Below are positions 901-39,123 of a stretch of DNA of 39,903 bases, piece by piece. Where the stretch lies: positions 1 through 39,903 of the IMG/VR virus record IMGVR_UViG_3300018486_000049. One strand, 5' to 3'. Positions within the stretch are counted from its first letter, which is position 1. Each line of letters begins with the position of its first letter. Below the pieces are notes generated by a model. The model did not search any database. It saw nothing but the letters and a program-made list of their open reading frames with translations, and was not told where the DNA came from. Origin of the DNA: a virus (Duplodnaviria; Heunggongvirae; Uroviricota; Caudoviricetes). A program made the position numbers and the translations under genes.

Positions 901-3330
901 TTAGTCATGCATCATGCTTGCGCGGGCTTTGGCGCGCTTCTCGCGCTCATACTTTTCTAATGCATCCTGCAAATCATTACCCAACCGATCTCCCGGCATA
1001 CCATTGCCCGGCACGGTGATTTGATAGATTGGCCGACTCTGGTCGATGTAGGTTTTACCGGCGGGTGCCGTGACCGGCTGATAGCTGTTGTATGCGCTGA
1101 TTGCCGGGCTGTAACCGTTCTGCGTCGCTGCATTGGCTTTCGCCGCTGTCTGGTCAAGTGAGCTGGATTCTTTGTTGATAATGCCGAGTTTTTCGAGCAC
1201 CCAGTCAATCCCGCTTCGCAGCTTGTTAAAGGCGTTAAGCGGCATCAGCAGCGCATCGGCCAGCGTCTGACCGAACATAACCCCAACATCACGACAACTG
1301 TTGAGCGTGTCCTGAGTCGCTTTCACCGGCGCTATCAGGTCTTTAAACCACTGCCAGACGCCGCGAAGTTTTTCGCCGAGACCGTCGAAAATGGGTGCCA
1401 GCGGGGCGAACATTTCCCCGACCGGCGCAAAGGCACTCATGAGCCCCTCGACCACACCGGCAAAGAATGCGCTGACAGGCTCCCAGTATTTACGGATAAG
1501 CAGCGCGCCAGCGACAACAGCCGCCGCTACCGCCACGACAGGCCACGTAATAGCACCAATAGCCGCAATGACCCCGCCACTGATTGTCGTAAAGACCGCA
1601 CCAAGCGCACCAGCCGCCGAAATGATGGCGTTAATGCCAGTAATTACCGGCCACGATACAAGGCCAATGGCACCAATCATCCCCACAATACCGACAGCTG
1701 CCGCCGTAATGACACCCAGCGTGGTGGCAAGAGATTTGTTCTTTTGGATCCAGCTATCGAGCCTCAATACATACCCTGTCGTCGTTTGTACCAGCTTTCT
1801 TAATGATGACTCTTGCTGGTCAAACAGGTCGGTTCCTACCGCTTCATACGCAGACTGAAACTCTTTAAAATCGCCGCCGAGGTTATCCTGCATGACCTTC
1901 ACCAGCTCAGCGGTTTTGCCATCCGATGCTTTAAGGGAAGCGGTAAGCTGGTCTAATTTCCCGCTCGAGGCAGCGGTCATGAGTACCGCAGCCGACGAGC
2001 TGGCCTCTTCACCGAAAATGGTTTTCATATATTCGGCACGCTGGCCGGTGCCGAGGTTGTTTTTATCAAAACTCCGCTGCATTTCTTTCAGGATGGTAAA
2101 TATTGGACGTGTGTTCCCCTTACCATCAGCCGTTTTGACGCCGAGCTCTTTAATGGCGTCATACGCTTTGCCCGTTGGAGCCTGCAGGCGACTTAATACG
2201 GCACGGCTCCCCGTACCCGCCATCGATCCCGTAATTTTGGCGTCATGCAGTGCGCCGACCATTGCGGCTGTTTCTTCGATGCTGACCCCGGCATTTTTCG
2301 CCACCGGCGCGGCATAAGTCAGCGCATCACTCAGGCCGTCAAAGTCGGCGGCGGTTTTGTTCATCGTCATCGACAGAACATCACCGATATGGGCGACCTT
2401 ATCGTTTGAAAGCTGGAAGGCAGAGCGCATCCCCATCAATAACCCGGCGTTCTCTTCCATCGTTCGACGGTTTGCGAGCGCCATATCGAGTGTTACGGGG
2501 GTAGCGGCCTGAATAGCCGCAGCATCGCCGCCAGCCTTTGCAATAATAATCTGAGCACCGGCAGCATCATCAGCCGACGCGGCGGTGTTGTCACCGAGCT
2601 GGCGCGCCTGTTTGCGGAGCGCCACCATATCAGCTGAGTCTTTACCGACACCGAGAACGGCCTGTAACTCAGAGTTTTTCTGAGCAAAATCATAACCGGG
2701 CTTCATCAGTGCAACACCGGCAAGCGCTCCGGTCGTTGCCATGCCTATCCCGGCAGCGCCCATCGATGCCGCATTTCCAGCCAGTGCCTTTCCTGCCTGA
2801 TAGCGTTTTTGTACTGCGCTGAGTTTTGCCTGTTGCGCGCTGACCCGCGCCAGTGCTTCATGCTGGCGGTTAAGTTGTGCGGTAGTTTCATTGATAGAGT
2901 TTTTCAGGCGGCTTTCATCATTCGACAGATTGCGCGTATTAATCCCCGCTTTGCCGAGCTCGGTCTGTTGCCGCTTCACCGATTGGGTGAGGCTGTTATA
3001 TTTTGCCTGTAACCCTTCAGCCGAACGCTTTGCTGATTCCAGCACTCTGGCCTGTGCCGCCGTTGGCCGTTCCGTGTTTTTAAACTGCACCGCCAGCTCG
3101 GCGGCTTCCTGTTTTGCCTTTTCCAGTGCCTGTCCGGTTACCGCCAGTTGTGCGCTGGTTTTGCGAAAACCGTCGATTTTCGATGCCTGACCATTCAAAT
3201 CACGCAGGGATTGCTGAGTCGTGCGGATATCGCCAGACAGCGATTTGCTCGCCGTCTGGATCGCTTTAAAGGGTCGGGTCGCCTGGTCGACAGCTTTCAG
3301 CAGCACTTCGAGTTTGAGGTTATTACTCAT
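901..3330 (-). CDS. T: Tail tape measure protein (gpT), 809 aa
   Basis: Long Ala/Gly-rich protein with coiled-coil N-terminus and hydrophobic C-terminal third, located after E/E-prime as in P2. Confidence 0.9.
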   Translation of the reverse strand: MSNNLKLEVLLKAVDQATRPFKAIQTASKSLSGDIRTTQQSLRDLNGQASKIDGFRKTSAQLAVTGQALEKAKQEAAELAVQFKNTERPTAAQARVLESAKRSAEGLQAKYNSLTQSVKRQQTELGKAGINTRNLSNDESRLKNSINETTAQLNRQHEALARVSAQQAKLSAVQKRYQAGKALAGNAASMGAAGIGMATTGALAGVALMKPGYDFAQKNSELQAVLGVGKDSADMVALRKQARQLGDNTAASADDAAGAQIIIAKAGGDAAAIQAATPVTLDMALANRRTMEENAGLLMGMRSAFQLSNDKVAHIGDVLSMTMNKTAADFDGLSDALTYAAPVAKNAGVSIEETAAMVGALHDAKITGSMAGTGSRAVLSRLQAPTGKAYDAIKELGVKTADGKGNTRPIFTILKEMQRSFDKNNLGTGQRAEYMKTIFGEEASSSAAVLMTAASSGKLDQLTASLKASDGKTAELVKVMQDNLGGDFKEFQSAYEAVGTDLFDQQESSLRKLVQTTTGYVLRLDSWIQKNKSLATTLGVITAAAVGIVGMIGAIGLVSWPVITGINAIISAAGALGAVFTTISGGVIAAIGAITWPVVAVAAAVVAGALLIRKYWEPVSAFFAGVVEGLMSAFAPVGEMFAPLAPIFDGLGEKLRGVWQWFKDLIAPVKATQDTLNSCRDVGVMFGQTLADALLMPLNAFNKLRSGIDWVLEKLGIINKESSSLDQTAAKANAATQNGYSPAISAYNSYQPVTAPAGKTYIDQSRPIYQITVPGNGMPGDRLGNDLQDALEKYEREKRAKARASMMHD

Positions 3331-3756
3331 TCGTGTTTCCGCTTCGCTGTAGCGCTTTTTCGCGCCAGTTGACGAGTTCGGTCAGGCTCATGGGATACAG
3401 GTCTGATGGCGACCAGTGGAAAATTACCGCTATGTCAGCCATCAGGTCATCGACCGAGAGTTTTTGCGGGAAGGTTACGCCGCCTAACTCGGTGACAAAA
3501 AACCGACCACCTTACCGGCAAACGACAGCAGGTCGGGCAGCTCCAGTGCGGCGGCTTCCTGCTCGGTCAGCGACGGCATGGTCATGCGCGGCAGCACTTT
3601 AATCAGCGCATCGACGTCAGAGTTTGCGACAGATGCCAGGCTGACACCGCGAAGGGTTCCGGCACACGGTTTTAACAGGGTGACGTCGGTAATAACCTGC
3701 TCACCGCGCTTAATGGGTTTAATCAGAGTGACGATATTTTCGTTAGTTTTATCCAT
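3323..3756 (-). CDS. Tail assembly chaperone E+E-prime, produced by -1 programmed frameshift
   Basis: Slippery TTTTTTG (plus-strand CAAAAAA at 3496-3502) 10 nt before the E stop; the -1 frame stays open to a TAA at 3323-3325 overlapping the T start codon; same architecture in the second copy. Confidence 0.6.
3484..3756 (-). CDS. E: Tail assembly chaperone gpE
   Basis: 90 aa ORF between FII and T; ends just after a TTTTTTG slippery heptamer. Confidence 0.8.
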   Translation of the reverse strand: MDKTNENIVTLIKPIKRGEQVITDVTLLKPCAGTLRGVSLASVANSDVDALIKVLPRMTMPSLTEQEAAALELPDLLSFAGKVVGFLSPS

Positions 3757-3818: not shown

Positions 3819-4337
3819 TTACAGGCCGATATTTTGTCGGTGCGCCTCGAGCATGTCGGTGCCGTTCACTTTTTCGATGAGGTTCACGGTGTCGATTTCC
3901 ACCAGTTCCGAGCCATTCATCGTCAGCTTGAAATAGGTACACGCGAGAGCGATTTTCGACTCGGTGTCTTCGCCCTGTTTGGCTTCACCGAGGTCGATTT
4001 CTTTCTGACGGCCACGGAGAACAACCTCAACCGGCACGGTCTCGCCGGTGTCATCACGCTGGTAAGACCCGGCAAAACGTAGCGGTACGGAGGCCGCGCC
4101 GGTGGCAGCGTATAACGACCAGATAGCGTCATCGGGGAAGCCGCCGAGAGAGATTTCAGCCGACAGCGCATCGTCATCGAGGCCGAGGTCGACCGGTGCC
4201 GAACCATTCATCCCGCCGCCGCGATAGTTCTCGAGCTTGCGGGTTAATTTCGGCAGCGTGACGGACTGCACGACGCCGAGATAACTCACCCCATCGATAA
4301 ACAGGTTCATGAGTTTGAGCTTGCGCGGTAATGCCAT
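3819..4337 (-). CDS. FII: Tail tube protein FII
   Basis: 172 aa ORF after the sheath gene, homologous to copy at 37332-37847. Confidence 0.9.
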   Translation of the reverse strand: MALPRKLKLMNLFIDGVSYLGVVQSVTLPKLTRKLENYRGGGMNGSAPVDLGLDDDALSAEISLGGFPDDAIWSLYAATGAASVPLRFAGSYQRDDTGETVPVEVVLRGRQKEIDLGEAKQGEDTESKIALACTYFKLTMNGSELVEIDTVNLIEKVNGTDMLEAHRQNIGL

Positions 4338-4349
4338 TTGTCAGGCTCC

Positions 4350-5537
4350 TTATTTGCTGTTGACGGACGAGATAAGATTCGCCAGATATTTATCAGTAAT
4401 GCGCTGGCGTAAGGTCAGGTGTTCGAGTGGCGGCACCGGCGTATAGTCATAATCGATAAACAGTTTCCCGGCTTTCAGGGTTTCTTTACTGTTGGCCTCT
4501 TCGTCAAACCAGCACGTCGCATCGATGATGTAACCGCCGGTTTTCAGCTCGCGGAATTTCGCGTTGATGCCGTCGATAATGTCGCGAATCAACGTCGCGG
4601 TGATGGGCTTATCGTTCGCCCACATATGCCCCTCGGCTATTGTGTCGGCTATGACCTGTGCGGTGCGGGTGTAGTTCTCAAACTGAAACAGCGGGTCATC
4701 GGAGCAATTACGGTTACCCCAGAAGCGGAAACCATCGGCACGAATCAGCGTCGTAACACCGGCCTCATTCAGCAGGTCGGCATCAGTGCCAGATTCCTGC
4801 AAATCCCAGAAGACCGACGCACTGATACCGGTGACGCCATTGATGCCGACGTTTGACAGGGTTTTATGCCAGCCTGTGTCATTGTCGATTTTTGCGCGCA
4901 GTCCCAACGCGATCGCTGTTGCATAACTGGTTGTGGTCGCGTTGGCCGTGGTATCCCACCCGAGGAAGTCAGGCCAGATAATCATGAGCTCACGGGCGCT
5001 GAAGTTTTCGCGGTAGGCGATAACGTCAGCAATGGTTTTACAGCCCCACGCGCTGACATAGGCGAAAGCGCGCAGCTTCTGAGCCACGGAGACAAGCGCG
5101 GTCGCCACCTCCTGAGTATCGAGCCCCGGCACACCGAGAATACGTGGCTTCACGCCGGTGACCGCTTTCGCCGTTAACAGCGCTTTCATCCCGGTATATT
5201 TGCCATTCTCATCCGTGGTGCCGATGATGTTAGAAATGGTTTGCGCCTGTGCCTCTTCGCCGTCGCCGGTACCCTCCGCGACACGCACAACAACGACAAC
5301 CGGTTTTGACTGGTTAGCGATGAGCTGTAAGGATTTTGCCAGGGTACCTTTAGTACCGGCTTTTGCGATGGCGCTTTGTGGGTTGGTAATCAGCACCGGC
5401 TCATTGAGAGGGAAAGCCCCGGCGTCAGCATCACTGGCTGTGCAGACCATGCCAACGACCGCCGTTGATACCGTCGAGATTGTGCGGGTGCCGTCGTTAA
5501 TTTCGACGACCTCGACACCGTGATGATAATCACTCAT
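4350..5537 (-). CDS. FI: Contractile tail sheath protein FI
   Basis: 395 aa, homologous to copy at 37857-39029, classic P2 FI-FII-E-T-U-D order. Confidence 0.9.
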   Translation of the reverse strand: MSDYHHGVEVVEINDGTRTISTVSTAVVGMVCTASDADAGAFPLNEPVLITNPQSAIAKAGTKGTLAKSLQLIANQSKPVVVVVRVAEGTGDGEEAQAQTISNIIGTTDENGKYTGMKALLTAKAVTGVKPRILGVPGLDTQEVATALVSVAQKLRAFAYVSAWGCKTIADVIAYRENFSARELMIIWPDFLGWDTTANATTTSYATAIALGLRAKIDNDTGWHKTLSNVGINGVTGISASVFWDLQESGTDADLLNEAGVTTLIRADGFRFWGNRNCSDDPLFQFENYTRTAQVIADTIAEGHMWANDKPITATLIRDIIDGINAKFRELKTGGYIIDATCWFDEEANSKETLKAGKLFIDYDYTPVPPLEHLTLRQRITDKYLANLISSVNSK

Positions 5538-5601
5538 CCGTTTAACTCCGTTAGTTGAGGTGAGTGATATTGTCTGGTTTACGCCTGTATGCGGCTATTT
5601 G

Positions 5602-6180
5602 TCAGGGTTCGCCGGTGGCTGACACAACGGGATTTGTCGCCGGAAATTTTTTATACAGCGTCGATATGCCCACATCAAAAATCAGTGCAACACGCTGTCG
5701 GGATTCTCCGGCCGCAATCAACCGGCCAGCCTGAGCCCATTCATCAGGCGTCAGCTTCGGCCTACGACCTCCGATCCTGCCTTGTGCCCGGGCTGCATCC
5801 AGCCCGGCGCGGGTTCGTTCGACGATTAACTCGCGTTCCATTTCTGCAAGAGCGCCCATGATGTGAAAGAAAAATCGCCCCATCGGGGTTGAGGTATCAA
5901 TACTGTCGGTCAGGCTTCTGAAATTAACCCCTCGCTGGCGAAGCTCTTCAGTCATAGAGACAAGATGGCGCATGCTACGCCCGAGCCTGTCGAGCTTCCA
6001 GACAACGAGAGTATCACCGGCATTAAGTTGCCTGAGTGCGCGATTTAACCCTGGCCTGTTTGTCGATTTACCGCTGATTTTATCCTCGAAAATTAGCTCA
6101 CATCCCGACCGTTCCAGCGCGTCACGCTGTAGCGCGGTATTTTGTTCATTTGTTGATACGCGCACATAGCCAACCTGCAT
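5602..6180 (-). CDS. Serine recombinase, DNA invertase of the Hin/Gin/Pin/Cin family
   Basis: [13 protein letters not shown]... with catalytic Ser in the RVS motif, conserved [12 protein letters not shown] and C-terminal HTH; ATG at 6180 preferred over the TTG at 6198; adjacent to an invertible segment. Confidence 0.9.
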
Positions 6181-6236
6181 TTGTTTTCCCTCATGCAAAA
6201 GCCCAAATGATGCCAGCTAGGGGGGAAAACTACATT

Positions 6237-6260
6237 TTCTTAAACGTTGGTTTAGGAGAA
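6237..6260. repeat. gix-like inversion crossover site (invertase-proximal)
   Basis: TTCTTAAACGTTGGTTTAGGAGAA; inverted copy of the half-site GGTTT(A/G)GGAGAA also at 8160-8185 and again at 39796-39819; resembles the 12-2-12 gix/hix architecture. Confidence 0.6.
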
Positions 6261-6599
6261 GCGGCTAAAAGGAATGTAGGGACAGGGGCAAATCAGATAC
6301 CTGATATGGGTAGCTTCACGCTTTCTGTTTCAGGTACTGGATATCAAAAATTACCATCAGGTTTTATTCTTCAGTGGGGCTCAATCGGCGCACCAGGCAT
6401 TGCACAGGATGTAGTAACCCATTTCCCGATTGCATTTCCAAACAGATGTCTGCGTGTTTTGGTCTCACAAGACTACACACCAGATAGCGGGGCTGTTGGT
6501 TATATTGCCTGTGCAGGTTTTAGTCCCGACCCGGTTAAATTTATATCCAGAGCCAGTACTCCTGGCCTCGGCGCTTCATTTTTAGCGTTAGGCTGTTAA
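6237..6599 (+). CDS. Alternative tail-fibre C-terminal variable segment (currently silent orientation, no own start)
   Basis: Plus-strand frame open through the crossover site reading [11 protein letters not shown]..., in the same frame relative to the site as LTYLGLGEGSA in H, so inversion would fuse it in frame to the constant part of H. Confidence 0.55.
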
Positions 6600-6620
6600 T
6601 TTAGCTATATGGAGTGAAAA

Positions 6621-7061
6621 ATGAATTACATATATTCCGCGACTACAAACTCTTTCTATCCGCTGGAGATGAAAGAGGATTACACTCAAGCTGACTCATG
6701 GCCAGATGATGCTGTTGAAGTTGATGAGCAAGTGTATATTGCGTTTTCCGGATTACCGCCGAAAGGAAAAATCCGTATCGCTGGAGAAAATGGTTTTCCT
6801 GCATGGTCTGAAATTCCACCACCAACACATGAGGAACAGATTGCTGCAGCCGAACAGGAAAAGCAGCAACTGATTAATCAGGCCAACGATTATATGAACA
6901 GTAAACAATGGCCTGGTAAAGCGGCTATTGGTCGTCTGAAAGGTGAGGAACTGGCGCAATATAATTTGTGGCTGGATTATCTGGACGCACTGGAGCTGGT
7001 CGATACTTCCGGTGCGCCAGATATTGAATGGCCTACGCCTCCGGCAGTTCAGGCCAGATGA
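6621..7061 (+). CDS. Alternative tail-fibre assembly chaperone (silent-orientation partner)
   Basis: 146 aa ORF directly after the alternative fibre segment; its C-terminus converges on that of the minus-strand chaperone. Confidence 0.7.
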   Translation: MNYIYSATTNSFYPLEMKEDYTQADSWPDDAVEVDEQVYIAFSGLPPKGKIRIAGENGFPAWSEIPPPTHEEQIAAAEQEKQQLINQANDYMNSKQWPGKAAIGRLKGEELAQYNLWLDYLDALELVDTSGAPDIEWPTPPAVQAR

Positions 7062-7638
7062 CATCCGGCGCGGTGCTGGTATCTGTTGCCGTCACCGCGT
7101 CAATGTAATCCAGCGCAGCGTTAAGTCGGGCGGTTTCTGCCTGCGTCAGATTCCGTCCGGCCTGCAATTTCAGCTGAATCAGACTAATGGAAGCCATTGC
7201 AGTATCAATCAGTGACTGACGCTGTGCTTCTGCCGCGCCTACTGCGGCGCTATGCTGTGCCACAGTATCTGTTACCCATTTCTCACCATCCCATTCATCG
7301 TATGGCGTTAACGGGGCGATAGTGGTTGTATTTTCAGGATAATCACCCGGAGCTGTGATTTCTTTCGATTCTCCTGTTTCGGTGCTATAGATGATTTCAC
7401 CGCGATGGTCTGACACATATTCCCATGAGTTTAAATCTGCCGAACGGCAGATTGCATAACCCGCCTTATGTGTGCCAGGAGCATCTAAACAGGAATATGC
7501 AGGGATACCGACACCCACAGCAAGATATTCAGTTGATGCAGAAATATACTCCCGTGTCTCACTGTCATAGTTATAAACGGTAATCTCTCCTGCCTTTGTG
7601 GCAATAAATTTACTATTCAAGATGGCGTTATACATCAT
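7033..7638 (-). CDS. G: Tail-fibre assembly chaperone gpG
   Basis: 201 aa ORF immediately after H, start overlapping the H stop. Confidence 0.8.
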   Translation of the reverse strand: MMYNAILNSKFIATKAGEITVYNYDSETREYISASTEYLAVGVGIPAYSCLDAPGTHKAGYAICRSADLNSWEYVSDHRGEIIYSTETGESKEITAPGDYPENTTTIAPLTPYDEWDGEKWVTDTVAQHSAAVGAAEAQRQSLIDTAMASISLIQLKLQAGRNLTQAETARLNAALDYIDAVTATDTSTAPDVIWPELPEA

Positions 7639-9221
7639 GCAGCCCTCACAATGTAATTAAATGAAATATTACGTGGGCGTGTCTCTGCTGCACCGACAAT
7701 ACTGGTACTCAACCCCGTCGCTGTTCGTTTGTTATTTTTATTTCCTTCAATCAGACAGTTGTAATCATCATTACCAATTAACGAATTAGTGGCATCAATA
7801 CCGTCCGGGGACAAGGCATTAGTTGTAGAACTTAAAGTCAGCATCTCGTCTGAACTTGGAAGATTTTTTAATGGTATTTCATTGCGAGAAATACCCGCGT
7901 AAAAAAAGGACTCATGCCTGTGCGCTTCAAAAGAGTCATCCTGAAGACTTAGCAAGGCACGTCCCGCATCCACACCACGCCCGTCATCCCAGCCACGAAT
8001 AAACTCACCACGTAAATCAGGCAATTTATTTGTCGGATAAGCCTTTGCCAGTTCCGGGTATTCTTCAGCAGAAAAAGCGGCACCGTTGCATTTCAGCCAG
8101 CCTGTTGGCGGAGTGGCGGAAGGCCACGGAACAGGCACGCCAACGGGTAATGCCGAACCTTCTCCCAAACCAAGGTATGTGAGAAGACCAGCTACATCCT
8201 TTCCACTCAAATTGGTAAGCGTATTGTCCAGCGGTTGTTTACCTGCCAGCGCATTAAGCATTGTCGTGGCAAAGTTCGGATCATTCCCCAGTGCCGCCGC
8301 CAGTTCGTTCAGTGTATCCAGTGCAGCAGGTGCAGAACCCACCATTCCTGCAATCGCCGATTTCACAAAAGCCGTAGTGGCAATCTGTGTATTGTTGACC
8401 GACTGCGCCGCCGTGGGGGCTGTTGGCGTTCCGGTGAGTGCCGGACTCGACAACGGTGCTTTTAGTGCCAGCGCATTGTTAATGGTGGTACTGAAATTCG
8501 GATCATTGTTAATGGCTGCGGCTATTTCTTTCAGCGTGTCCAGCGTGGCTGGCGCACCATTAATAAGGGCCGTCAGTGCCGCCTGTACAAACGCAGTGGT
8601 CGCAACCTGCGTGGTATTATTCCCCGCCGCTGGCGTTGGCGCTTTGGGGGTTCCGGTAAATGTCGGGCTGGCTTTTGGCGCGTACTGTGAATGCGGGTCC
8701 GGTGCGGCAAGATGTTTTGCCATCTGATCATCCGCGTAAACCTTCAGCTCCAGTGCCTTGTCATCCACATACTTGCGGGTTGCCAGCACTACAGCAGGGT
8801 CGATTTTCAGGGTGATATTGTCCGTGCTGCTGGTAATCAGCACCATGCGCACGGTCTGAGTGCGCCCGCTACCTTCAGCCAGTTGCGGCTTATAGCTTTC
8901 CGGGCAGTTGCCCACGGCAATCAATGCCCCGGACTCATCAAACAAGCCCACTTCACGTATCCACCAACCGCCCTCGTTTTCAGGGATCACCTGTTCGGCA
9001 ATAATCTGGCTGCTGTTCTGCGGGTCGATATAAAGCATATTCAGCGCAGCCCGGCGTTTCTCATTTACCAGTGCCGTCTGCTTTGCGTCCGGCGTTGGCA
9101 ATACTCCACCGCCATCGCCCACCGCCATATGGGTAATTTTTAGCGGCACACCGAGCGCGGCGGCGCTGGCAAGTTTCGCCGCGCCAATATCCGTCAGCAG
9201 GGTATAAAATTTTGTGCTCAT
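7635..9221 (-). CDS. H: Tail fibre protein gpH (constant N-terminal part plus invertible C-terminal part)
   Basis: 528 aa, Ala/Thr/Asn-rich with an internal tandem repeat; crossover site inside the gene at 8160-8185. Confidence 0.85.
   Translation of the reverse strand: MSTKFYTLLTDIGAAKLASAAALGVPLKITHMAVGDGGGVLPTPDAKQTALVNEKRRAALNMLYIDPQNSSQIIAEQVIPENEGGWWIREVGLFDESGALIAVGNCPESYKPQLAEGSGRTQTVRMVLITSSTDNITLKIDPAVVLATRKYVDDKALELKVYADDQMAKHLAAPDPHSQYAPKASPTFTGTPKAPTPAAGNNTTQVATTAFVQAALTALINGAPATLDTLKEIAAAINNDPNFSTTINNALALKAPLSSPALTGTPTAPTAAQSVNNTQIATTAFVKSAIAGMVGSAPAALDTLNELAAALGNDPNFATTMLNALAGKQPLDNTLTNLSGKDVAGLLTYLGLGEGSALPVGVPVPWPSATPPTGWLKCNGAAFSAEEYPELAKAYPTNKLPDLRGEFIRGWDDGRGVDAGRALLSLQDDSFEAHRHESFFYAGISRNEIPLKNLPSSDEMLTLSSTTNALSPDGIDATNSLIGNDDYNCLIEGNKNNKRTATGLSTSIVGAAETRPRNISFNYIVRAA
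8160..8185. repeat. gix-like inversion crossover site inside the fibre gene
   Basis: TTCTCCCAAACCAAGGTATGTGAGAA; inverted partner of 6237-6260. Confidence 0.6.
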
Positions 9222-9823
9222 GGATTCACTCTCATTGTGTCAATAACATGGACCGCCCCGCCTTCATGCGCGGTGCCACCGGAAATAATCGTTTCGTTGA
9301 TATACGGATAGATCGTGATTTCTTCGCCAAGATAGCTGGCGGCTCCCACCCAATGCGGGCCGCTGGTCTGCAGATTGATGGACATGCCGATCATGTGGCG
9401 GCTACATGGTTTGGCATCGCTTATCAGTCGCTCAAGTTCCAGATAGGTATCTTCAGTGATGCCCTGGTCCTGCACGCCGATATCCAGGCGAAACGTGCCC
9501 GGTGTTTCTCCGGTCTGCCACCACTCAATAATGCGGATCAGGAATCCGAACGGCTCCACCACCCGCCGCACGGCACTGGTGGTCCCTTTATGCTGATGAA
9601 TATAAAAAGCATCCTTCACCACCTGGCGCTTGACGCTTTCTGTCCAGCCCTCGTCCCAGCGATCCACAGAGAACGCCCAGGCGAGATAAGGCAGGAAACT
9701 GACCGGACAGGTTGCCGGATTCCACAAGTCACGAAGCGGCACCTGCAGATCAGAAATCCCGCTGCAGGTTTGCGCCAGTCGGCGCTCCAGTGGTGTTGAA
9801 CCCGGTGGCAGCAGACTATTCAT
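9218..9823 (-). CDS. I: Baseplate protein gpI
   Basis: 201 aa ORF in the P2 position between J and H, start overlaps the J stop. Confidence 0.8.
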   Translation of the reverse strand: MNSLLPPGSTPLERRLAQTCSGISDLQVPLRDLWNPATCPVSFLPYLAWAFSVDRWDEGWTESVKRQVVKDAFYIHQHKGTTSAVRRVVEPFGFLIRIIEWWQTGETPGTFRLDIGVQDQGITEDTYLELERLISDAKPCSRHMIGMSINLQTSGPHWVGAASYLGEEITIYPYINETIISGGTAHEGGAVHVIDTMRVNP

Positions 9824-10724
9824 CCGTTCCTCCGTTGGTTACGCTCCACTGCGTACATGATGCCGCCTGTGTTTTGTTCAGGACCACATCCGCCAGAGGA
9901 GAAGCCAGCTCCACACGCTGCACCCCCTCAACATGCAGGGCGGCAAAAATGGCGCTACGGCGAATATCCCGACCAAGACGCGTCTGACTGGCGATGTACT
10001 TCTGCAGGCTGGCTTTTGCCGCTGCCATTACCGGCTCTGCTTCCGGTCCAGGATAGAGAAAAATGGTGGCTTCCACGCGATACGGGATGATTTCTGCGCT
10101 GCGAACCGTAAGACGGTCAGCCACCGGGCGGACGTTCTCACTGTTCAGAGCTTTTTCCACCACGTCCAGCAGGTCTTTTTCTGCAGTTCCATCGCCTTCG
10201 CGGCTAAGGACAGTCAGCACCACCTCTGCAGGTGCCGGGCTGGTTGCACTGGCATCCGCCACCCGACCGTCGGCGCTTCGGGCATGAAATTCATAAGCTG
10301 CAGTTGGCCCCGCAACAGAAAGCCCTTCAAAGGCCGCAGGCACACGCAGGCGCAACGCTTCATCGCTTTCCATCACAGCTGCAACGGGCGGCACAGCATC
10401 ATTATCAGCAGGCGTCACCGTCAGGCGTGTCACGTTGTAGTTGGCAGCGAGCTGGTCAAGATCGCCGCCCATCGCGTAAGCCACCATCACCGCCTGCGCG
10501 GCTTCGTTAATGCGCTGGCGCAGAAGCAACTCACGGTAAGCGTTCTCCTGCAACAATTTAGTGGCGGGTTCAGATTCCAGTTCCAGCGTGCGGATCACTG
10601 CTTCCTGCTCATCTTTCGGATGAAGCGCCACAAATTCTGCCTTGCGTTCGGCAAGCAGCGTCTCAAAGTCCGGCACATCCACAATCTGCGGTGCAGGCAA
10701 CTGCGAAAGGTCAATCACTGCCAT
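9816..10724 (-). CDS. J: Baseplate protein gpJ
   Basis: Track ORF starts at a GTG at 10763; internal ATG at 10724 (MAVIDLSQ...) preferred; P2 order W-J-I. Confidence 0.8.
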   Translation of the reverse strand: MAVIDLSQLPAPQIVDVPDFETLLAERKAEFVALHPKDEQEAVIRTLELESEPATKLLQENAYRELLLRQRINEAAQAVMVAYAMGGDLDQLAANYNVTRLTVTPADNDAVPPVAAVMESDEALRLRVPAAFEGLSVAGPTAAYEFHARSADGRVADASATSPAPAEVVLTVLSREGDGTAEKDLLDVVEKALNSENVRPVADRLTVRSAEIIPYRVEATIFLYPGPEAEPVMAAAKASLQKYIASQTRLGRDIRRSAIFAALHVEGVQRVELASPLADVVLNKTQAASCTQWSVTNGGTDE

Positions 10725-11070
10725 TCTCTGCTCCTGTTGATACGGAAAGGGACACAGGCACACCGTTATTCCGCCGCCCGGTCAGCTCCACCACCATTGA
10801 ACCGTCAAAATTGCTGTTGATGGTGATGGAATCCAGCGTCAACCGTGGCTCCCAGCGACTCAGCGCCACATACACTGCCGACATGACCTGCAGGCGTAAT
10901 GCCGGATTTTGTGGCTGATCTATCAGTGCCGACAGCAGGGAACCATATTCCCGGCGGGCAATACGGCTACCCTGCGGTGTCAGCAGAATGTCCCGCACCG
11001 ACTGGCGCAGATGATCAATATCAGTAATGACTTTGCCGCTGGTATTGTTCATCCCGCTATAAAGCGTCAT
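10711..11070 (-). CDS. W: Baseplate wedge protein gpW
   Basis: 119 aa, resembles P2 gpW as recalled; position between V and J. Confidence 0.8.
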   Translation of the reverse strand: MTLYSGMNNTSGKVITDIDHLRQSVRDILLTPQGSRIARREYGSLLSALIDQPQNPALRLQVMSAVYVALSRWEPRLTLDSITINSNFDGSMVVELTGRRNNGVPVSLSVSTGAENGSD

Positions 11071-11645
11071 ACCGGGCCTCCGGTTGTATCGCCGCCTTTC
11101 AGGACGCCAGTATGCTGATGCGCATCAACCACGATCCCGTTAGAACTCATCGCTCCGCCGCCCTGGGTAACGCCACCATTGATCACCACTTCGCTGTTAA
11201 TGCGCGTGCGGTCAGCCTCCAGTACAAACTCACTGGTTTTCATGGTGATGTTGTCAGCAGCCTCAATGACCATTGATTTGATGCCCCTGACATACCAGCG
11301 CCCGGTGGCGGGTTCGTATTCAAACCAGCCACCGTCAGGATGTTCTGTCACGCAGGCGTCCGCCGACGTCGACGGTGGTGCGAACTGATTCGAATAGACA
11401 GCGGGCAGCGCAAAGGCGGTTTCCAGATTGCCGCCCAGACTCAGCAGCACCACCTGCTCACCTTCCGATGGTCGCCACCATGTACGGGCATTCCCGGCAC
11501 GCAGCGTCAGCCAGCTGATCCAGTTGGTTTCAAGCTCGCCCGTTTTCACCCGGCAAAGCCAGTTTTCCCTGTCCACTTCGGTGACTACCCCTGTGCGGAT
11601 CAGGTTGGTGATAAGGCGCATGATTTCGGTTAATTGTGCGTTCAT
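11067..11645 (-). CDS. V: Baseplate hub/spike protein gpV
   Basis: 192 aa, position and size of P2 V, first gene of the V-W-J-I-H-G operon. Confidence 0.8.
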   Translation of the reverse strand: MNAQLTEIMRLITNLIRTGVVTEVDRENWLCRVKTGELETNWISWLTLRAGNARTWWRPSEGEQVVLLSLGGNLETAFALPAVYSNQFAPPSTSADACVTEHPDGGWFEYEPATGRWYVRGIKSMVIEAADNITMKTSEFVLEADRTRINSEVVINGGVTQGGGAMSSNGIVVDAHQHTGVLKGGDTTGGPV

Positions 11646-27974: not shown

Positions 27975-28916
27975 ATGTCAACTAATAAAATCACATTTCG
28001 CCATATTGAAGATCATCTGAAAGCCATGGTCATGCAGAATCGAGGAGGGCAAAAAGTCATTGAGAGAATACTCATGGCCTATGGTTTCAAATCACGCCAA
28101 GCATTCTGTAACCACCTTGGTATTTCACAAAGTACAATGGCTAACAGATATGCACGCGATACCTTCCCTGCTGATTGGGTTGTTATATGTTCAATGGAAA
28201 CTGGCGCATCAATCGAATGGTTAGCATTTGGTTTAGATGCTGAAGAAGGAGTGCCAGTTCCTTCGCCAGAACGGCATGCTGAAAAACAGTCTGCAGATGA
28301 ATTTTGCAATGAAGTTCACACCCCCACGATAAAGTTCGATAATGAAAACCACATGGATTTCACTCGAGGGGGTAAAGCAGCAATAGAGCGAATTGTTAAG
28401 GCTTACGGTTACAAAACGCGCCAAGCCTTAGCCGATCACCTTGGCATCTCAAAAAGCACATTAGCTACACGATACATGCGAGACATTTTTCCGGCAGACT
28501 GGATCATCCAATGCTGTTTAGAAACAGGAGTGTCTCTCGAGTGGTTATCTTTTGGTAAGGGGCATTCCAATCAAACAAAGCTAAGTGGGTTGCTTACATT
28601 AGACTGCTATGATCTACGTGACGGCAAACTTACTGATCAAAGAGAATTAATCGTTTCGAGCGAAATTTTACCTCAAAATTTAAAACATCCCTATATAGTT
28701 AATTCCGCAAATGATTCATATATCATTAGCAAAGAGGAGTATCTTAGCGATGGTCTATGGTTAGTATCTATTAACGGAGAATTTACTTTTAGAGACATAT
28801 TTAAACTTCCAAACAATCGCATCCGCGTTGAAAACACAAAATATAGCTTTGAATGCGATAAAGAAGATTTGGAATTTAATAATAAAGTTAAAGGAATAAT
28901 TAGAAAAAGGGTTTAA
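27975..28916 (+). CDS. cI: CI-like immunity repressor with tandemly duplicated N-terminal DNA-binding domain
   Basis: 313 aa; residues about 23-85 and 122-184 are an internal repeat (about 60 percent identical, IERI..AYG.K.RQA...HLGIS.ST.A.RY.RD.FPADW...C.ETG.S.EWL.FG); C-terminal domain SDGLWLVSINGEF...; divergent from Apl/Cox. Confidence 0.8.
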   Translation: MSTNKITFRHIEDHLKAMVMQNRGGQKVIERILMAYGFKSRQAFCNHLGISQSTMANRYARDTFPADWVVICSMETGASIEWLAFGLDAEEGVPVPSPERHAEKQSADEFCNEVHTPTIKFDNENHMDFTRGGKAAIERIVKAYGYKTRQALADHLGISKSTLATRYMRDIFPADWIIQCCLETGVSLEWLSFGKGHSNQTKLSGLLTLDCYDLRDGKLTDQRELIVSSEILPQNLKHPYIVNSANDSYIISKEEYLSDGLWLVSINGEFTFRDIFKLPNNRIRVENTKYSFECDKEDLEFNNKVKGIIRKRV

Positions 28917-31717: not shown

Positions 31718-31880
31718 TAACCACCACTGACCACCAACCCAACTTATTGTTTTTACTCTAACTTATTGTTTTCATTAACCCGTTTACATAAATGGGTTTT
31801 TTGTTGCCTGAAATTTATGCCGTTTAAAATCATGATGTTAGAAGCACTGTTTTTTAACGATGGCGACAAATTGGCGGCAG
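31678..31880. repeat. att-like junction flanked by an imperfect 20 bp direct repeat
   Basis: TGGCGACAAAGTGGCGGCAG (31678-31697, inside the int 3-prime end) and TGGCGACAAATTGGCGGCAG (31861-31880, next to the ogr stop) flank an AT-rich 160 bp segment. Confidence 0.45.
31741..31772. repeat. Tandem 13 bp direct repeats in the att region (possible Int arm-type sites)
   Basis: AACTTATTGTTTT at 31741-31753 and 31760-31772; followed by a weak hairpin plus T-run (31777-31802). Confidence 0.4.
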
Positions 31881-31882
31881 AG

Positions 31883-32101
31883 TCAAAGAGAGAGCACCAC
31901 CTGTCCTGATTTCATTGGATGCGGCTGAACCGGATTTGACTCTTTTGGCGTTGCAATCGAACGAACAAAAGTTTCATGGGTAACAAAAGTATGGCTGCAG
32001 TTAATGTTCTGGCACTGGTTGTAACGCTCTTTGGTCAATGAAGATACCTGAAAACTGCTGCGAGTATGGGCGGCACTTCCACACAGTGGGCAAATCATCA
32101 T
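31883..32101 (-). CDS. ogr: Late gene activator Ogr/Delta-family zinc-finger protein
   Basis: 72 aa from MMICPLCGSAAH... with CPLC...CQNINCSH zinc-binding pattern matching Ogr as recalled. Confidence 0.85.
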   Translation of the reverse strand: MMICPLCGSAAHTRSSFQVSSLTKERYNQCQNINCSHTFVTHETFVRSIATPKESNPVQPHPMKSGQVVLSL

Positions 32102-32191
32102 TTTTCGAGTTCTCCCCATTTTTGCTAAATTCACAATAATGATACCGCATTATTCCATTTTGAAAACTTAAAAGTTCTCTATTACGAAGAA

Positions 32192-33292
32192 TCATTCCAT
32201 TTCGAAATCATTAATCTTCACTTCAAGCTCCAGACTGGTCGTAAAACCGTTATCCGGATTGACAGTATGCGTCAGGGTGGTAATAGTCCATTCCGCATCA
32301 TCTATCGGCTGTTTAAAGCCTCTGACTTTCACTGGCATTTCCGTGTAGAGATCCGCCCGACCTTCTGCCAGTTGTAGCGAGAATGACGCAACGCCACGTT
32401 GCAGGCGTTCCCACTGCATTTTCGCCGCCCGTTCGGCGTTGCTCCGGTTGGCATAGGTGCGATTAAGTACCAGCACGTTTTCATCTGTACCCACCAGGTA
32501 ATCGCCCTGCTTCGCTTCCGGCTCTTTCTTCTGCTTCTTAGTCCTGCGCTTACGCTTCACCGTGGTGCTTTCTTTCTTCGCGGGTTCGCGGGTATGCAAC
32601 CAGCTGGCAATTACGCCCGTGTAGGCTCCGCGATCTGCCAGGGTAAAGCGGTGACTGTCGCCGTCCTTACGTGTGATAGTGATAACCGGTAGTGGTTTAC
32701 CGCTGGCGCTTTTACCCTGTCCCTGCCGGATGAATAACAGATTGCCATTTTTCACCGACGCAATAGCACCGTACTGGCGCGCCAGCCGCATCAGAAAACT
32801 GCCGTCACTCTCATTGGTCTGGTCTATATGCTCCACAGGTTTATCCGACAGGTCTTCACCCAATGCCATCTTCAGTTTGTGCCGCGCAGCTATTTCCTTC
32901 ACCACTTCCCCAACGGTGGTCTTGTGCCACGATTTTTCACGGCGGGTATTCAGGGTTTCACGAAAATCAGCACTTCGCGCCCGGATAGTCAGGCGGTCCG
33001 GTGCGCCAGTGTGTTCAATCTCGTCCACCGTGAATGCTCCTTTCGGGAAAAGCGACTGCCCCTTCCAGCCCAACGCCAGCGTAATGACCGCACCACGGCG
33101 CGGCAGCACGATTTTTCCGTCGGCGTCGTCCAGCTCCAGATCAAGCTGGTCCGCTTCAAAGCCCCGATTGTCCGTCAGCGTCAGACTCATCAGGCGGTTA
33201 TCCAGCACAGTGGTGATATCCTTACCCTCAATACTGATGCTGAATGCCGGAGTTTTGTTGCCTTTGCTAAGCAGTTCAGAGCTGAAATTCAC
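32192..33292 (-). CDS. D: Tail protein D (gpD), second diverged copy
   Basis: 366 aa, start overlaps the U stop, precedes ogr as in P2. Confidence 0.85.
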   Translation of the reverse strand: MNFSSELLSKGNKTPAFSISIEGKDITTVLDNRLMSLTLTDNRGFEADQLDLELDDADGKIVLPRRGAVITLALGWKGQSLFPKGAFTVDEIEHTGAPDRLTIRARSADFRETLNTRREKSWHKTTVGEVVKEIAARHKLKMALGEDLSDKPVEHIDQTNESDGSFLMRLARQYGAIASVKNGNLLFIRQGQGKSASGKPLPVITITRKDGDSHRFTLADRGAYTGVIASWLHTREPAKKESTTVKRKRRTKKQKKEPEAKQGDYLVGTDENVLVLNRTYANRSNAERAAKMQWERLQRGVASFSLQLAEGRADLYTEMPVKVRGFKQPIDDAEWTITTLTHTVNPDNGFTTSLELEVKINDFEME

Positions 33293-33774
33293 GACAGCAG
33301 CCCTCCCACCGTTTTACTGATATCGCTTAAGGCAGACGTTGTCGTATCCTGCAAATTATTCAGCTGCGCACTGAGATCACCGAACATATCGGACAGGGAT
33401 TCATCCACCCGTTTGAGCGACAGGGTGAACTCAATCCGGCGCGGCATACCATCGCGGAAAAACTCCGTTTTAGTCTGATTCAGTCCCTCAATCACATACA
33501 TGCCGTAAATCGTGCCGCTGCCTTCAATCAGGGGCCATGCTTTCCCCTGTTCTGCCATCTGCTCCAGTGCCAGCAACGACAGCCTGCCGCCTGTTATTTC
33601 CGGCATAAGAACACCGGAAAGCGTCAGCATGTCGTTTTCCGGTCCCAGAAACTGCGTAGACGGACGTCGGTTTACCCGACTGTTTGCCGCATGTCGCCAG
33701 CTGCGTTGATACTGCAGTTCCTGATACGGAACGGTGCGCAGCATAAACACGTACAATCCCAGCACCATCATCAT
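33289..33774 (-). CDS. U: Tail protein U (gpU), second copy
   Basis: 161 aa, homologous but clearly not identical to 425-889. Confidence 0.85.
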   Translation of the reverse strand: MMMVLGLYVFMLRTVPYQELQYQRSWRHAANSRVNRRPSTQFLGPENDMLTLSGVLMPEITGGRLSLLALEQMAEQGKAWPLIEGSGTIYGMYVIEGLNQTKTEFFRDGMPRRIEFTLSLKRVDESLSDMFGDLSAQLNNLQDTTTSALSDISKTVGGLLS

Positions 33775-36700
33775 GCGTCGTATCCCCCCTGATCGCTGTA
33801 GTTACTCCTGGCTTTTGCCTTCAGCCTGCGTTCACGTTCATCAAGCTGGCGTGCCACCTCCCGCGCAATATCCTGCGCACTTTGTCCTGGCTGCGTCTGA
33901 ATGATGATCTGCGTCGGTGCCTCAATCCGTTGAACGAGCGGCACAGTGGCTGCGCGACTCACAATTGCTTCTCCACCTTTCGCGGGAAGTGCCAAAGGGT
34001 GCAACGGTGGAAGCTCTGCTGGCGCGGCAGCAACGCCCATCATTCCGGCAACAACGGCAGCCAGTGCAGCTGTATTTCTCCGGCTGGTCACATTTGCCGG
34101 GCCGTTAACAATTTCCGGCCCGTTTTCACCGACGATGCCAAACTGCCCGCGCGGGATATACCCGCCGCTGTCATACATCCCCGCAAAGCCATATCCCCAT
34201 GATGGAAAACCACCCGATGGCATCATCACTTTACCGTCTGCATTCACCGTCGCAGGTTGCTGACGCGTCACGCTTTCCGGCAGTTTTGCCTTTGCGGCCT
34301 CTTTACTGACAATGCCGAGCTTCTCCAGCAACCAGGAAACGCCGGATTTCAGGGAGTCCAGCGGATGCATGACCATATTCAGCCCTTCCGCCAGTGCCTC
34401 CCCGAATCGCCGCCCCATTGCCGCTGCGCTCTGCAGTTCGGCAGAGGTCGACTTAACGGGCGTCAGCAGATCAGTAAACCAGCCCCACAGCGCCTGCACT
34501 TTGTCGCCAATCCACTGGAACACGGGCTTAAGCGGTTCGAACGCTGCACTGATGGGACCTGCCGCCGCTTTGAATCCTTCCACCACGCCACCGAGAAATG
34601 CGGTGATGGGTTGCCAGTATTTCCAGACAACCAGCGCCACGCCCGCCAGTGCAGTAACCACAAGACCTATCGGACTGAGCAGAGCACCTAACAGACCAGA
34701 TATGGCATACAGGGCAACGCGCAGCATCGCCAGTGGACCAGATGCCAGTACTCGCAGCACCGTGCCTGCGGCGGCCAGTCCACCGCGCAGTACCGCCAGA
34801 GGATTCATAAACATCACAGCAACAGCACGTAAACCGGATAATCCAGACCGCAAAAGTGCAACCGGCGCACCTGCTACAGTTTTCAGGACATTTCCCGTCA
34901 GTGATGCCGTGCGGCGCAAAGACGACAACGGCGCAGTAAGTAAACCTGCGGCGTTGCCCGATGAAGCAAGCCCGCGTCGCAGCAGTGCCAGTGGTGCGCC
35001 AGCCAGCCAGGACAACGCGCTGCTGGTTCGAGTTACTGCTGCCGTAACGGAAGATAACGTTTTGATACCCAACACAGAGAATCCCAGACGGATCACTGCC
35101 AGCGGCCCCAGCACTGCAGCCAGCGCCACCGCTAAGGTGCCGAGGCCGACGGTAACCGCAGCCACAACAGCCGATGCTTTCATCAGTGTGCCTGTCAGTT
35201 CCGGGTTAGCTTCCACCCAGCGACGCAACGCCCCCGTGACGCTTTTCACCGTGTACAGAATATCCATCAGCGGCTGGCGCAGCGTTTCGCCCAGGCTGCT
35301 GAAGGTGTTCTGCGCTCCGGTTTTGACCAGCAACCACTGCGCAGAAAGTGAATCCTTGTTAATGTCGGATTCTTTCTGCATGGAGCCGAGCGCATCATTG
35401 CCCGCTGTCAGTTTTAACTGACGCTGCAGTTCCGGCAGGTTGTTTGCCAGTTTCGCCGCGTCATCGCCAAACTCTTTACCAAACAACATAGTCATGGCAG
35501 ACAGGCGCTTGTCCTGCGGCAGCGCGTTTACCTTCTCCAGCACGCGCTGGATGGTTCCCATCGCATCCTTCGTCATCTGCTTTTCAATCACTTCAGGATT
35601 GAGTTTCAGCAGATTCATCCCTTCAAAGAAACTCTTGCTTTGCATGGTGGCAATGGACAATTCACGCACCATCGCGTTTGCTGCACTGGCTGCAACCTCT
35701 GGCGCAGCGCCCAGTGTCAGGAAGGTGGAACCCAGCGCCGCCGCTTTACGATAATCCAGACGGTCAGCCACACCGCCCAGACGTTGCATCACATCAATGA
35801 TGTCTGCCCCTTTCGACATGGCGTTATCATCCAGATAGTTCAGCGCATCACCGAGCTGTTCAATATTGCGGGTGGGGATTTTGTAGAGCTGGGCGATTTT
35901 CCCCAGACTTTCTGACAGTTCATCCGCTGGCAGCTCAAAGGCTGTTGCCGCCTTTGCTGCCGTACTGGCGAAGGCCAGCAGGTCACGTTTCTGATCTTCC
36001 CAGCTGTCGTCAGGGTTTGCGACGTTCATGCGCGCACCACCTTCAACCAGTGCAGCGAAGTCCACCGCACCGTTTTCCATCGGCAACTGTTCGCTGGCAG
36101 CCTTGATGGCATCCTGCATTTCATAAAAACGTGCAGTGCGGTTGCCATTATCGTCACGCAAACCATTGACCTGCTTTGCCACACCTTTCATGGCATCTTC
36201 CATGCTGGTATAGCTTTTTACTGCCGCCATCACTGGCGCACCCATTGCCAGCCCTGCAGCCGTGGTGGTGGCTCCGGCACCTGCAATACGATCACGCACC
36301 TCCAGCGAACGGGCATAACTGGCACGCGCTGCATTCATCCTGCGCTGAGCTTCCCCCAGTCGCTTCAGCCGCGCCTCCTGTTTCGAAAGTTCCTGGTTAT
36401 AACGTGATGTTTCACGGGCTAAACGGGCAGTTGCTCCCGCATCGTCTTTCGCAGAAATTCCCGCCCGGTACAGTTCAGCACGCACAAGCGCCGTCTGCTG
36501 CTGCAGCTTTTTCTGGCGTTCTTCCAGGCGCTGAACAGCCAGCCGTTGACGGCCCAGAGCAACAACCTGACGTTGCGAAGGCGGCCCCATCGCTCCCAGT
36601 TCCTGACTGAGCAAATTTGCACGCTGGCGGGCATAGTTCAGCCTGTCGCCTAATTTCTGATTTTCTGCCTGCAGCTTTCGGAAGCTGTCCAGACTGCTCC

Positions 36701-37277: not shown

Positions 37278-37331
37278 TTTGCTGTCCTGTCAATTGGGTT
37301 CTGGCGCGGTATCCCGCGCCGTTCAGATATA

Positions 37332-37847: not shown

Positions 37848-37856
37848 GTTGTCCCC

Positions 37857-39029: not shown

Positions 39030-39105
39030 AGTGGCGAACCTCCTGATTGGATTAGGCTTCGCCCTATGTTGAAGTGATTGTGCCTGACAAACAGCTAAGC
39101 GCAGT

Positions 39106-39123
39106 TGTGTCGTTATTCACACA
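39106..39123. promoter_or_regulatory. Candidate Ogr-type late activator site (TGT-N12-ACA) upstream of FI copy 2
   Basis: TGTGTCGTTATTCACACA, about 85 bp upstream of the FI start codon. Confidence 0.45.

Follow-up and report, generated by a model that had tools for sequence, protein, structure and literature searches.

The P segment of the cryptic E. coli prophage e14 (stfP-tfaP / tfaE-stfE, with the invertase gene pinE) runs from a constant fibre part and a crossover site through a C-terminus with its chaperone, and then through a convergent chaperone and C-terminus, to a second site and the invertase. Inversion of this segment was demonstrated experimentally, and the invertase of another prophage inverts it as well (PMC12529663). 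The G segment of phage Mu (S/U vs. S'/U', with the invertase Gin) has a similar layout: the constant N-terminus of the fibre lies outside the segment, there are two C-termini that each have a chaperone, and the invertase is just outside the segment. In the P2-like prophages of EPEC E2348/69, inversion of tail-fibre genes was shown by sequencing and PCR (PMC4272514). More broadly, P2-like phages often have a DNA invertase at their Z/fun hotspot, with inversion of the neighbouring genes (bioRxiv 10.1101/2024.10.15.618418).

We examined a stretch of 39,903 nucleotides from a viral sequence record (IMGVR_UViG_3300018486_000049), which we will call the window. Judging from its genes and sites, positions 5602-9221 are very probably a Pin/Gin-type site-specific inversion switch in the tail-fibre operon of a P2-like prophage (Table 1). 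The system itself is already known: it has the design of e14, Mu, and P1, and it has been reported in P2-like prophages (PMC4272514; bioRxiv 10.1101/2024.10.15.618418).

Table 1. Features of the invertible segment and its surroundings (positions in the window).
Feature	Position	Strand	Description	Evidence
Gin/Pin-family serine DNA invertase	5602..6180	-	192 aa from ATG at 6180	Pfam and PDB matches
Putative recombinational enhancer	6096..6158	.	Within the invertase gene, at its 5' end	Motif
Left crossover site	6235-6260		26 bp, TTTTCTTAAACG TT GGTTTAGGAGAA, core 6247-6248; invertase-proximal	
Silent alternative fibre C-terminus	6249..6599	+	GLGE + 112 aa	Pfam Gp53-like_C 3.7e-15
Silent alternative tail-fibre assembly chaperone	6621..7061	+	146 aa	Pfam Caudo_TAP 2e-38
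Current-orientation tail-fibre assembly chaperone	7033..7638	-	201 aa, TfaE-like, equivalent of P2 G	Pfam Caudo_TAP 4e-31
Current variable C-terminus of H	7635..8171	-	178 aa including GE, tail-collar	Pfam Collar 4.6e-15
Right (distal) crossover site, inside H	8160-8185		26 bp, TTCTCCCAAACC AA GGTATGTGAGAA, core 8172-8173	
Constant N-terminal part of tail fibre H	8172..9221	-	~350 aa, outside the segment	Pfam Phage_tail_fib N-terminal 7e-65

A P2-like prophage

The tail genes that flank the segment are of the P2 type. According to Pfam, they include GpU, the tape measure, the E-type chaperone, the tube protein FII, and the sheath, with further matches to Tail_P2_I, Baseplate_J, GPW_gp25, and Phage_base_V, and the tail module has the order V-W-J-I-H-G ... 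FI-FII-E-T-U, with the domains of these families. We also found genes for the GPA replication protein, CI, CII, and an integrase. By these genes, the element is a P2-like (186-type) myovirus prophage of E. coli, and it looks complete: H is full-length, and genes for the baseplate, sheath, tube, capsid, terminase, replication, and integrase are present. None of the PADLOC models matched the unannotated cargo open reading frames of the prophage.

Phage P2 itself (H-G-fun(Z)-FI) shares the tail operon, the gene order, and, ahead of FI, the conserved pF activator region. However, H and G are fixed in P2, and the place of the second fibre end, the second chaperone, and the invertase is taken there by fun(Z), a gene for T5 exclusion. 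An earlier note on this DNA had placed the segment in the slot where P2 carries Z/fun, within a P2-type tail operon, and the P2 record does have fun(Z) between G and FI.

Crossover sites

We scanned the window with the consensus for Gin/Pin/Cin crossover sites (TTCTCNNAAACCNNGGTTTNNGAGAA), allowing up to 3 mismatches. There were 3 matches in the 39.9-kb window, versus 0.00 expected (100 shuffles), and the same consensus pattern recovers the annotated boundaries of the Mu G segment (gix) as well as the e14 sites. The consensus search was needed because repeat statistics alone do not pick out the pair of sites: the region has 264 inverted pairs, and as a plain repeat this one is unremarkable among them. 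Two of the matches bound the segment and are inverted relative to each other. In both, a 2-bp core is flanked by half-sites of 12 bp, and the two cores agree (TT/AA). If one of the two sites is read inverted, they are identical at 20 of 26 positions, and the TT core is common to both. The third match adjoins a second invertase, at the other end of the window. A third site for this segment, as in a shufflon, was not found at positions 5500-9300 with up to 6 mismatches.

On the minus strand, the right site codes for L-T-Y-L-G-L-G-E, and the inner half-sites (GGTTTAGGAGAA and GGTTTGGGAGAA) encode G-L-G-E in both fibre frames: the plus-strand frame reads ..NVGLGEAAK.. at the left site and the frame of H reads ..TYLGLGEGSA.. 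at the right site. The earlier note had claimed that the half-sites carry G-L-G-E in both alternative frames, as is seen in the translations, and it had put the sites at 6237-6260 and 8160-8185. The right site is exact, while the left site begins 2 nt earlier, at 6235, where the 26-bp consensus match begins.

The segment and the invertase

Between the sites are two convergent pairs of genes, each with a fibre C-terminus and a Caudo_TAP chaperone, and all four open reading frames are intact. The plus-strand pair is the alternative fibre end and chaperone that had been described before: a Gp53-like_C domain and then a Caudo_TAP domain. The silent C-terminus lacks a start codon of its own, and it would be expressed only after inversion. 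We also compared the two fibre ends to known receptor-binding tips, as had been suggested. The end of H is collar- or gp37-like, with partial matches to a phage short tail fibre (PDB 9cuy, 8e-19) and to the tip of T4 gp37 (2xgf, 3e-18); the silent end is gp53- or R-pyocin-like, with weak PDB matches to the tips of R-pyocin and phage tail fibres.

The invertase gene is intact and lies just outside the segment, between the segment and the sheath gene FI. The protein matches the Pfam families Resolvase (5e-51) and HTH_7 (1e-12), and its residues 1-183 match the structure of Gin (3uj3, E = 1e-86). In an alignment with PinE and Gin, the catalytic Ser9 is present within the motif VRVSTNEQ. The motif for contacting Fis is also present, as Q150-A-G-R153-L154, with numbering one below that of Hin, whose Fis-contact residues in the DNA-binding domain are Gln151, Arg154, and Leu155 (PMC3798978).

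The enhancer described for such invertases spans about 65 bp, is bounded on both sides by a Fis site, and normally lies within the invertase gene, about 100 bp from one crossover site (hix; PMC3798978). We found two Fis-like 15-mers (6144-6158 and 6096-6110) at the 5' end of the gene in the window; their centres are separated by 48 bp, and the distances to the centre of the crossover site are about 97 and 145 bp. The motif is degenerate and the 15-mers are in conserved coding sequence; a consensus scan of this invertase, the second invertase, e14 pinE, and Mu gin placed such a pair at matching points of the alignment in all four. The size of this element and its distance from the site are consistent with a Fis enhancer. 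When we scanned positions 5400-9400 for sigma-70 promoters and terminators, there was no enrichment over shuffled sequences and no obvious promoter for the invertase.

Both orientations in related genomes

When we simulated the inversion, the constant part of H was joined in frame to the silent C-terminus, which yields an H of 466 aa, versus 528 aa now. The product is 97% identical to annotated 466-aa H proteins of flipped loci in E. coli prophages (453/466 and 456/466 residues), and in its variable part the identity is complete (114/114). This agrees with the earlier note's claim that the end of H and its chaperone would be replaced in frame. The note had also given the swapped part of H as the last ~170 residues. 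The swap and the in-frame fusion stand, but in the current orientation GLGE is followed by 176 residues, and the alternative has 114.

The arrangement in the window occurs in 32 complete E. coli genomes, and the flipped arrangement in 27. Two near-identical isolates from yak, NQ3 and LS4, differ only in this way: 3363 identical bp are followed by 1872 bp that are exactly reverse-complemented and by another 3342 identical bp, and the breakpoints fall inside the crossover sites. Strain 160-11H1 has a segment of 99.1% identity in the opposite orientation, and the constant part of H (95.7% nucleotide identity) is joined there to the other C-terminus. Over the full length, there was no match of at least 99% in complete E. 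coli genomes (the best was 95%). In the phage collection, no record spans at least 80% of positions 5500-9300, and the matches are mosaic, to parts of H and the chaperone only.

Comparison to the known systems

The locus has the same layout as the e14 P segment, including a 29-bp tail-to-tail overlap of the two chaperone genes. Positions 8158-8173 (CCTTCTCCCAAACCAA) are identical to the published inverted repeat of e14 (PMC12529663), and the pin-proximal site of e14 is 2 nt off the left site in the window. The TfaE-like chaperone and the collar-type C-terminus have 88-89% nucleotide identity to e14 (88% between the chaperone and the e14 tfaE region). But e14 is a defective lambdoid prophage, while the window contains a complete P2/186-type myovirus prophage. 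Furthermore, nucleotide identity between the invertase gene and K-12 pinE is only about 70%, the gp53-like end and the 146-aa chaperone do not align to K-12 stfP (at an E-value cut-off of 1e-5), and the segment is 1925 bp instead of 1797 bp. In ETEC H10407, a locus that is annotated with pinE is about 95% identical over the invertase and the segment.

Besides the layout, the locus has 26-bp sites with the same consensus in common with Mu, and the putative enhancer would have the same position. It differs from Mu in the length of the segment (~3 kb in Mu), the fibre sequences, the phage background, the core dinucleotide, and the outer half-sites. The earlier note's description of the locus as having the logic of the Mu G segment is apt: the crossover is within the fibre gene, there are two convergent pairs of C-terminus and chaperone, and the invertase is outside. 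The EPEC prophages, which we compared by their publication, are of the same phage type and have the inversion in the same slot, between the tail-fibre genes and FI. However, one of the EPEC loci has three repeats and four variants, while the segment in the window has two sites.

Proposed mechanism and alternatives

We propose that dimers of the invertase would bind both 26-bp sites, presumably with host Fis on the putative enhancer within the 5' end of the invertase gene. Both central TT/AA dinucleotides would be cut and one pair of half-sites would be rotated by 180 degrees, and in this copy, the 1925 bp between the cores would be inverted. The constant 350-aa part of H would stay with its late promoter. 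In the current orientation, it would be fused to the 176-aa collar-type C-terminus and assembled with the TfaE-like chaperone (H of 528 aa); in the flipped orientation, it would have the 114-aa gp53-like C-terminus and the second chaperone (H of 466 aa). Since the segment supplies either tip, a population of lysogens would release particles with two receptor-binding tips. The two tips would probably give different host ranges.

It seems unlikely to us that this copy is instead a fossil that has kept its parts but no longer inverts and always makes the 528-aa fibre. The invertase might not be expressed, as no clear promoter was found for it, or the difference between A and G in the inner half-sites might weaken synapsis: the left inner half-site has an A for a G, which is one base off every related locus that we examined. 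Also, the window is a single assembled sequence in which just one orientation is visible. However, the four open reading frames of the segment and the invertase are all intact, the core dinucleotides match, and the outer half-sites recur unchanged at loci with documented inversion (two such loci for the left site). The second intact invertase, 33 kb away, could act in trans; there is a precedent in e14 (PMC12529663).

Another idea, which we think has a small chance of being correct, is that inversion is mainly a defence of the host against other phages, with fibre fragments or chimeras that block the receptors of those phages, as with StfE2 of e14. After inversion of e14, adsorption of T2 is blocked (PMC12529663), and the module is close to the e14 P segment, as the identical repeat at the right site and the locus in ETEC H10407 illustrate. 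But the orphan fragment lacks both its own start codon and its own promoter, whichever way the segment points. Alternative fibres for the virion are the simpler reading because the segment sits within a seemingly complete P2-like prophage.

Finally, it is hardly conceivable that the inverted repeats are a by-product of common coding sequence (the conserved G-L-G-E) and not recombination sites: the conserved half-sites do fall in coding sequence, and the region has many comparable inverted repeats, but the sites have the full 12-2-12 architecture of invertase sites and adjoin an invertase, the consensus had 0 chance matches, and we ruled out a mere coding coincidence because the natural flips in relatives break exactly within the sites.

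A second prophage in tandem

At its end, the window enters a second P2-like prophage in tandem, with its own invertase, which is intact, and its own crossover site (39794-39819). In other words, near-identical sites begin at 6235, 8160, and 39794, and a fourth is presumably beyond the window.

As the two prophages are head-to-tail, each with its own Pin-type invertase and with near-identical sites, their switches might act as one distributed system, in which either invertase flips either segment and the prophages recombine with each other. We view this as speculative and rather improbable. If it is true, recombination between the sites at 8160 and 39794, which are inverted at a distance of 31.6 kb and are in frame via GLGE, could give a third or fourth C-terminus for each H, or else recombination across the prophages could scramble both of them. 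In E. coli FDAARGOS_1287, a segment has an invertase gene on both sides and lacks the N-terminus of H, which may be the product of recombination between elements.

Implications

Returning to the inversion switch as the preferred explanation, its importance beyond annotation is small. H, the fragment with a "gp53-like domain," and the two chaperones should be annotated as one phase-variable unit, because assemblies may carry either orientation. For work on phage typing, phage therapy, or tailocins with P2-like elements, the 26-bp sites can be used to predict both variants of the fibre. With the tandem prophages, cross-talk of two invertase systems could be tested in a natural setting. And the fact that a 99% identical segment lies beside a 75% identical invertase shows that such cassettes move between prophages as modules that are bounded by the crossover sites.

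A probable inversion module of a known kind in a P2-like prophage

The leftmost genes of the window encode the expected tail families (see the table), and to their right are capsid and terminase ORFs, a GPA replication protein, CII, a CI repressor and an integrase, so the first element is a 186-type P2-like prophage. In the record for P2, H and G are followed by a terminator, then by fun(Z), which is encoded on the other strand, and then by the pF activator site and FI. In the window, the interval from the equivalent of G to FI holds a second chaperone, a second fibre end, and an invertase. This confirms the suggestion, in an earlier note on this DNA, that the module sits in the Z/fun slot. 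A survey of hotspots in P2-like phages also remarked that a DNA invertase is frequent in the Z/fun locus, with the adjacent genes inverted (10.1101/2024.10.15.618418). The same design has already been published for P2-like prophages, so the module is of a known kind. At their 3' ends, the two convergent chaperone genes share 29 bp (7033-7061), and tfaP and tfaE of e14 have an overlap of the same length.

Features of the two prophages
Feature	Position	Strand	Comment
U	425-889	minus	expected Pfam family
Tape measure	901-3330	minus	expected Pfam family
E	3484-3756	minus	expected Pfam family
Tube FII	3819-4337	minus	expected Pfam family
Sheath FI	4350-5537	minus	expected Pfam family
Serine recombinase, 192 aa	5602-6180	minus	between FI and H
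Left crossover site	6235-6260		TTTTCTTAAACG TT GGTTTAGGAGAA
Fibre C-terminal fragment	6249-6599	plus	Gp53-like_C
Chaperone, 146 aa	6621-7061	plus	Caudo_TAP
Chaperone, TfaE-like	7033-7638	minus	Caudo_TAP
H C-terminus		minus	tail-collar domain; between FI and constant H part
H	7635-9221	minus	expected Pfam family
Right crossover site	8160-8185		TTCTCCCAAACC AA GGTATGTGAGAA
I	9218-9823	minus	expected Pfam family
J	9816-10763	minus	expected Pfam family
W	10711-11070	minus	expected Pfam family
V	11067-11645	minus	expected Pfam family
ORFs of 349 and 201 aa	28919-30575	plus	between CI repressor and integrase
Ogr-like zinc-finger ORF, second prophage	~31.9-32.1 kb	minus	
D, second prophage	32192-33292		
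U, second prophage	33289-33774		
T, second prophage	33771-36848		
E, second prophage	36975-37277		
FII, second prophage	37332-37847		
FI, second prophage	37857-39029		
Intact Pin-type invertase, second prophage	39172-39744		
Crossover site, second prophage	39794-39819		TTTTCTTAAACG TT GGTTTGGGAGAA

The early region of the first prophage matches E. coli chromosomes at 99.9% identity, a similarity that ends at about 31818. A second P2-like prophage (31819-39903) follows head to tail; it also includes the beginning of a gp53-like fibre end, and the remainder lies beyond the end of the window. The junction of the two prophages was covered by no complete E. coli genome that we searched.

In the CI repressor ORF (27975-28916; 313 aa), Pfam identifies two separate Phage_CI_repr helix-turn-helix stretches and one CI C-terminal domain. 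Either the N-terminal domain is duplicated, or the start of the ORF was placed too far upstream. Pfam and PADLOC searches gave no match for the 349-aa and 201-aa ORFs. In related genomes, the matching region is annotated with a DUF4747 protein and hypothetical proteins, and these ORFs may be the cargo of a variable locus.

Crossover sites and invertase

Each crossover site is an imperfect dyad, with 12-bp half-sites flanking a 2-bp core. In inverted orientation, the left and right sites agree at 20/26 positions and have the TT core in common. The inner half-sites encode G-L-G-E in both fibre frames. The sites and this shared peptide were both pointed out in the earlier note, whose analysis was accurate overall. 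Positions 8158-8173 of the window have exactly the sequence of the inverted repeat published for e14, CCTTCTCCCAAACCAA (PMC12529663). A generic search for repeats found 264 inverted pairs in the region and did not single out the crossover pair. The invertase-site consensus, however, had 3 matches in 39.9 kb, versus 0.00 expected (100 shuffles); the third match adjoins the second invertase. This pattern was composed partly from the window's own sites. As a guard against circularity, the same pattern recovers both e14 sites and, in the Mu record, the boundaries annotated for the G segment.

The invertase aligns over its full length with PinE and Gin (1e-86 to the sequence of the Gin crystal structure), and it retains Ser9, in a VRVSTNEQ motif. 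Its chemistry is presumably that of these enzymes. Its Q150, R153, and L154 correspond to the residues through which Hin contacts Fis (PMC3798978). Two Fis-like 15-mers, at 6144-6158 and 6096-6110, are spaced 48 bp centre to centre and lie ~97 and 145 bp from the centre of the crossover site. The second invertase gene, e14 pinE, and Mu gin have Fis-like 15-mers at the corresponding positions of the alignment. Their spacing and distance fit the Hin enhancer, which is 65 bp long and ~100 bp from hix (PMC3798978). The motif is a degenerate one in conserved coding sequence, so the recombinational enhancer within the invertase gene is putative.

The interval from the crossover site to the invertase start codon contains a 9-mer, TGGCATCAT (6207-6215), that is conserved in the same place for both invertases of the window and for e14 pinE (Mu gin has TGGCATGAT). 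This 9-mer could belong to the invertase promoter or be a regulatory site. At the other end of the gene, only 64 bp separate the invertase stop (5602) from the FI start (5537). The final codons of this first invertase gene contain a 35-nt sequence, TTGTG..GACAAATAGCC (5600-5634), that agrees in both sequence and length with the region annotated in P2 as binding the pF activator, so the late F-operon promoter overlaps the invertase 3' end. This overlap may explain the C-terminal extension of the invertase relative to PinE.

Inversion product and relatives

We simulated inversion by reverse-complementing 6248-8172. The resulting H reads '..LLTYLGLGE|AAKRNVGTG..' and continues to a stop, giving 466 aa instead of 528 aa; the exchange point is the Leu/Val codon directly before GLGE. 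In the simulation, 176 residues and the TfaE-like chaperone are replaced by 114 residues and the 146-aa chaperone, in frame, which bears out the proposed swap of the last ~170 residues of H and its chaperone. The 466-aa protein is not hypothetical. E. coli 160-11H1 and GmM062 have the flipped arrangement, also in a P2-like context, and their annotated H proteins are 466 aa long (453/466 and 456/466 identical to the predicted protein). The variable part is identical in 160-11H1 (114/114).

We compared native and inverted 2.6-kb queries to 5,426 complete E. coli genomes, and counted a genome if at least 80% of the query was covered in one co-linear place. The native arrangement was found in 32 genomes and the inverted arrangement in 27. 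The yak isolates NQ3 and LS4 (chromosomes of 5,196,957 and 5,196,956 bp, with identical protein accessions around the locus) differ across the 8577-bp locus only in orientation: 3363 bp are identical, 1872 bp are exact reverse complements, and 3342 bp are identical. The breakpoints fall within the 26-bp sites, and the invertase-proximal site has the same outer half as in the window. RefSeq genomes also contain loci that are 94-95% identical to the window's module. Inversion has been shown directly for the e14 P segment (PMC12529663) and for two P2-like prophages of EPEC E2348/69 (PMC4272514).

Window 6244-8185 is 99.1% identical, in opposite orientation, to 4337-6278 of the 160-11H1 locus; in the flanks, the adjacent invertase is only ~75% identical and the constant part of H is 95.7% identical. 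The edges of this mosaic fall at the crossover sites, and this suggests that the segment is a cassette exchanged between prophages as a unit. In E. coli FDAARGOS_1287 (NZ_CP070071.1, 5715-8896), the same segment lies between two invertase genes, and the N-terminal part of H is absent. A P2-like 'recombinase family protein' adjoins FI, and 'pinE' adjoins ssrA. It looks as if crossover sites of two different elements had recombined, unless the arrangement is an assembly artefact.

Interpretation

The module is closely related to the e14 P segment, appears to work like the Mu G segment, and fits the Hin/Gin/Cin/Pin systems in its serine recombinase, its Fis-contact residues, and its paired 26-bp sites. 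With the tail Pfam families and the in-frame alternative H, the earlier proposal of Mu G-segment logic in a P2-type tail operon stands. The module is not a three-site shufflon. Very likely, Pin/Gin-type inversion, probably Fis-dependent, alternates two ends of H that would bind different receptors, each with its chaperone. For the window copy, there is just one sequence, and it might be a locked fossil that no longer inverts, but we consider this improbable. Slightly less probable is a role in defending the host, as reported for StfE2 of e14, which blocks the receptors of other phages; this is less parsimonious, as the prophage is apparently complete. Chance repeats are excluded as the source of the sites by the consensus matches and by the breakpoints of the natural flips. 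Alternating the ends of H would let a population of lysogens hedge its bets on host range.
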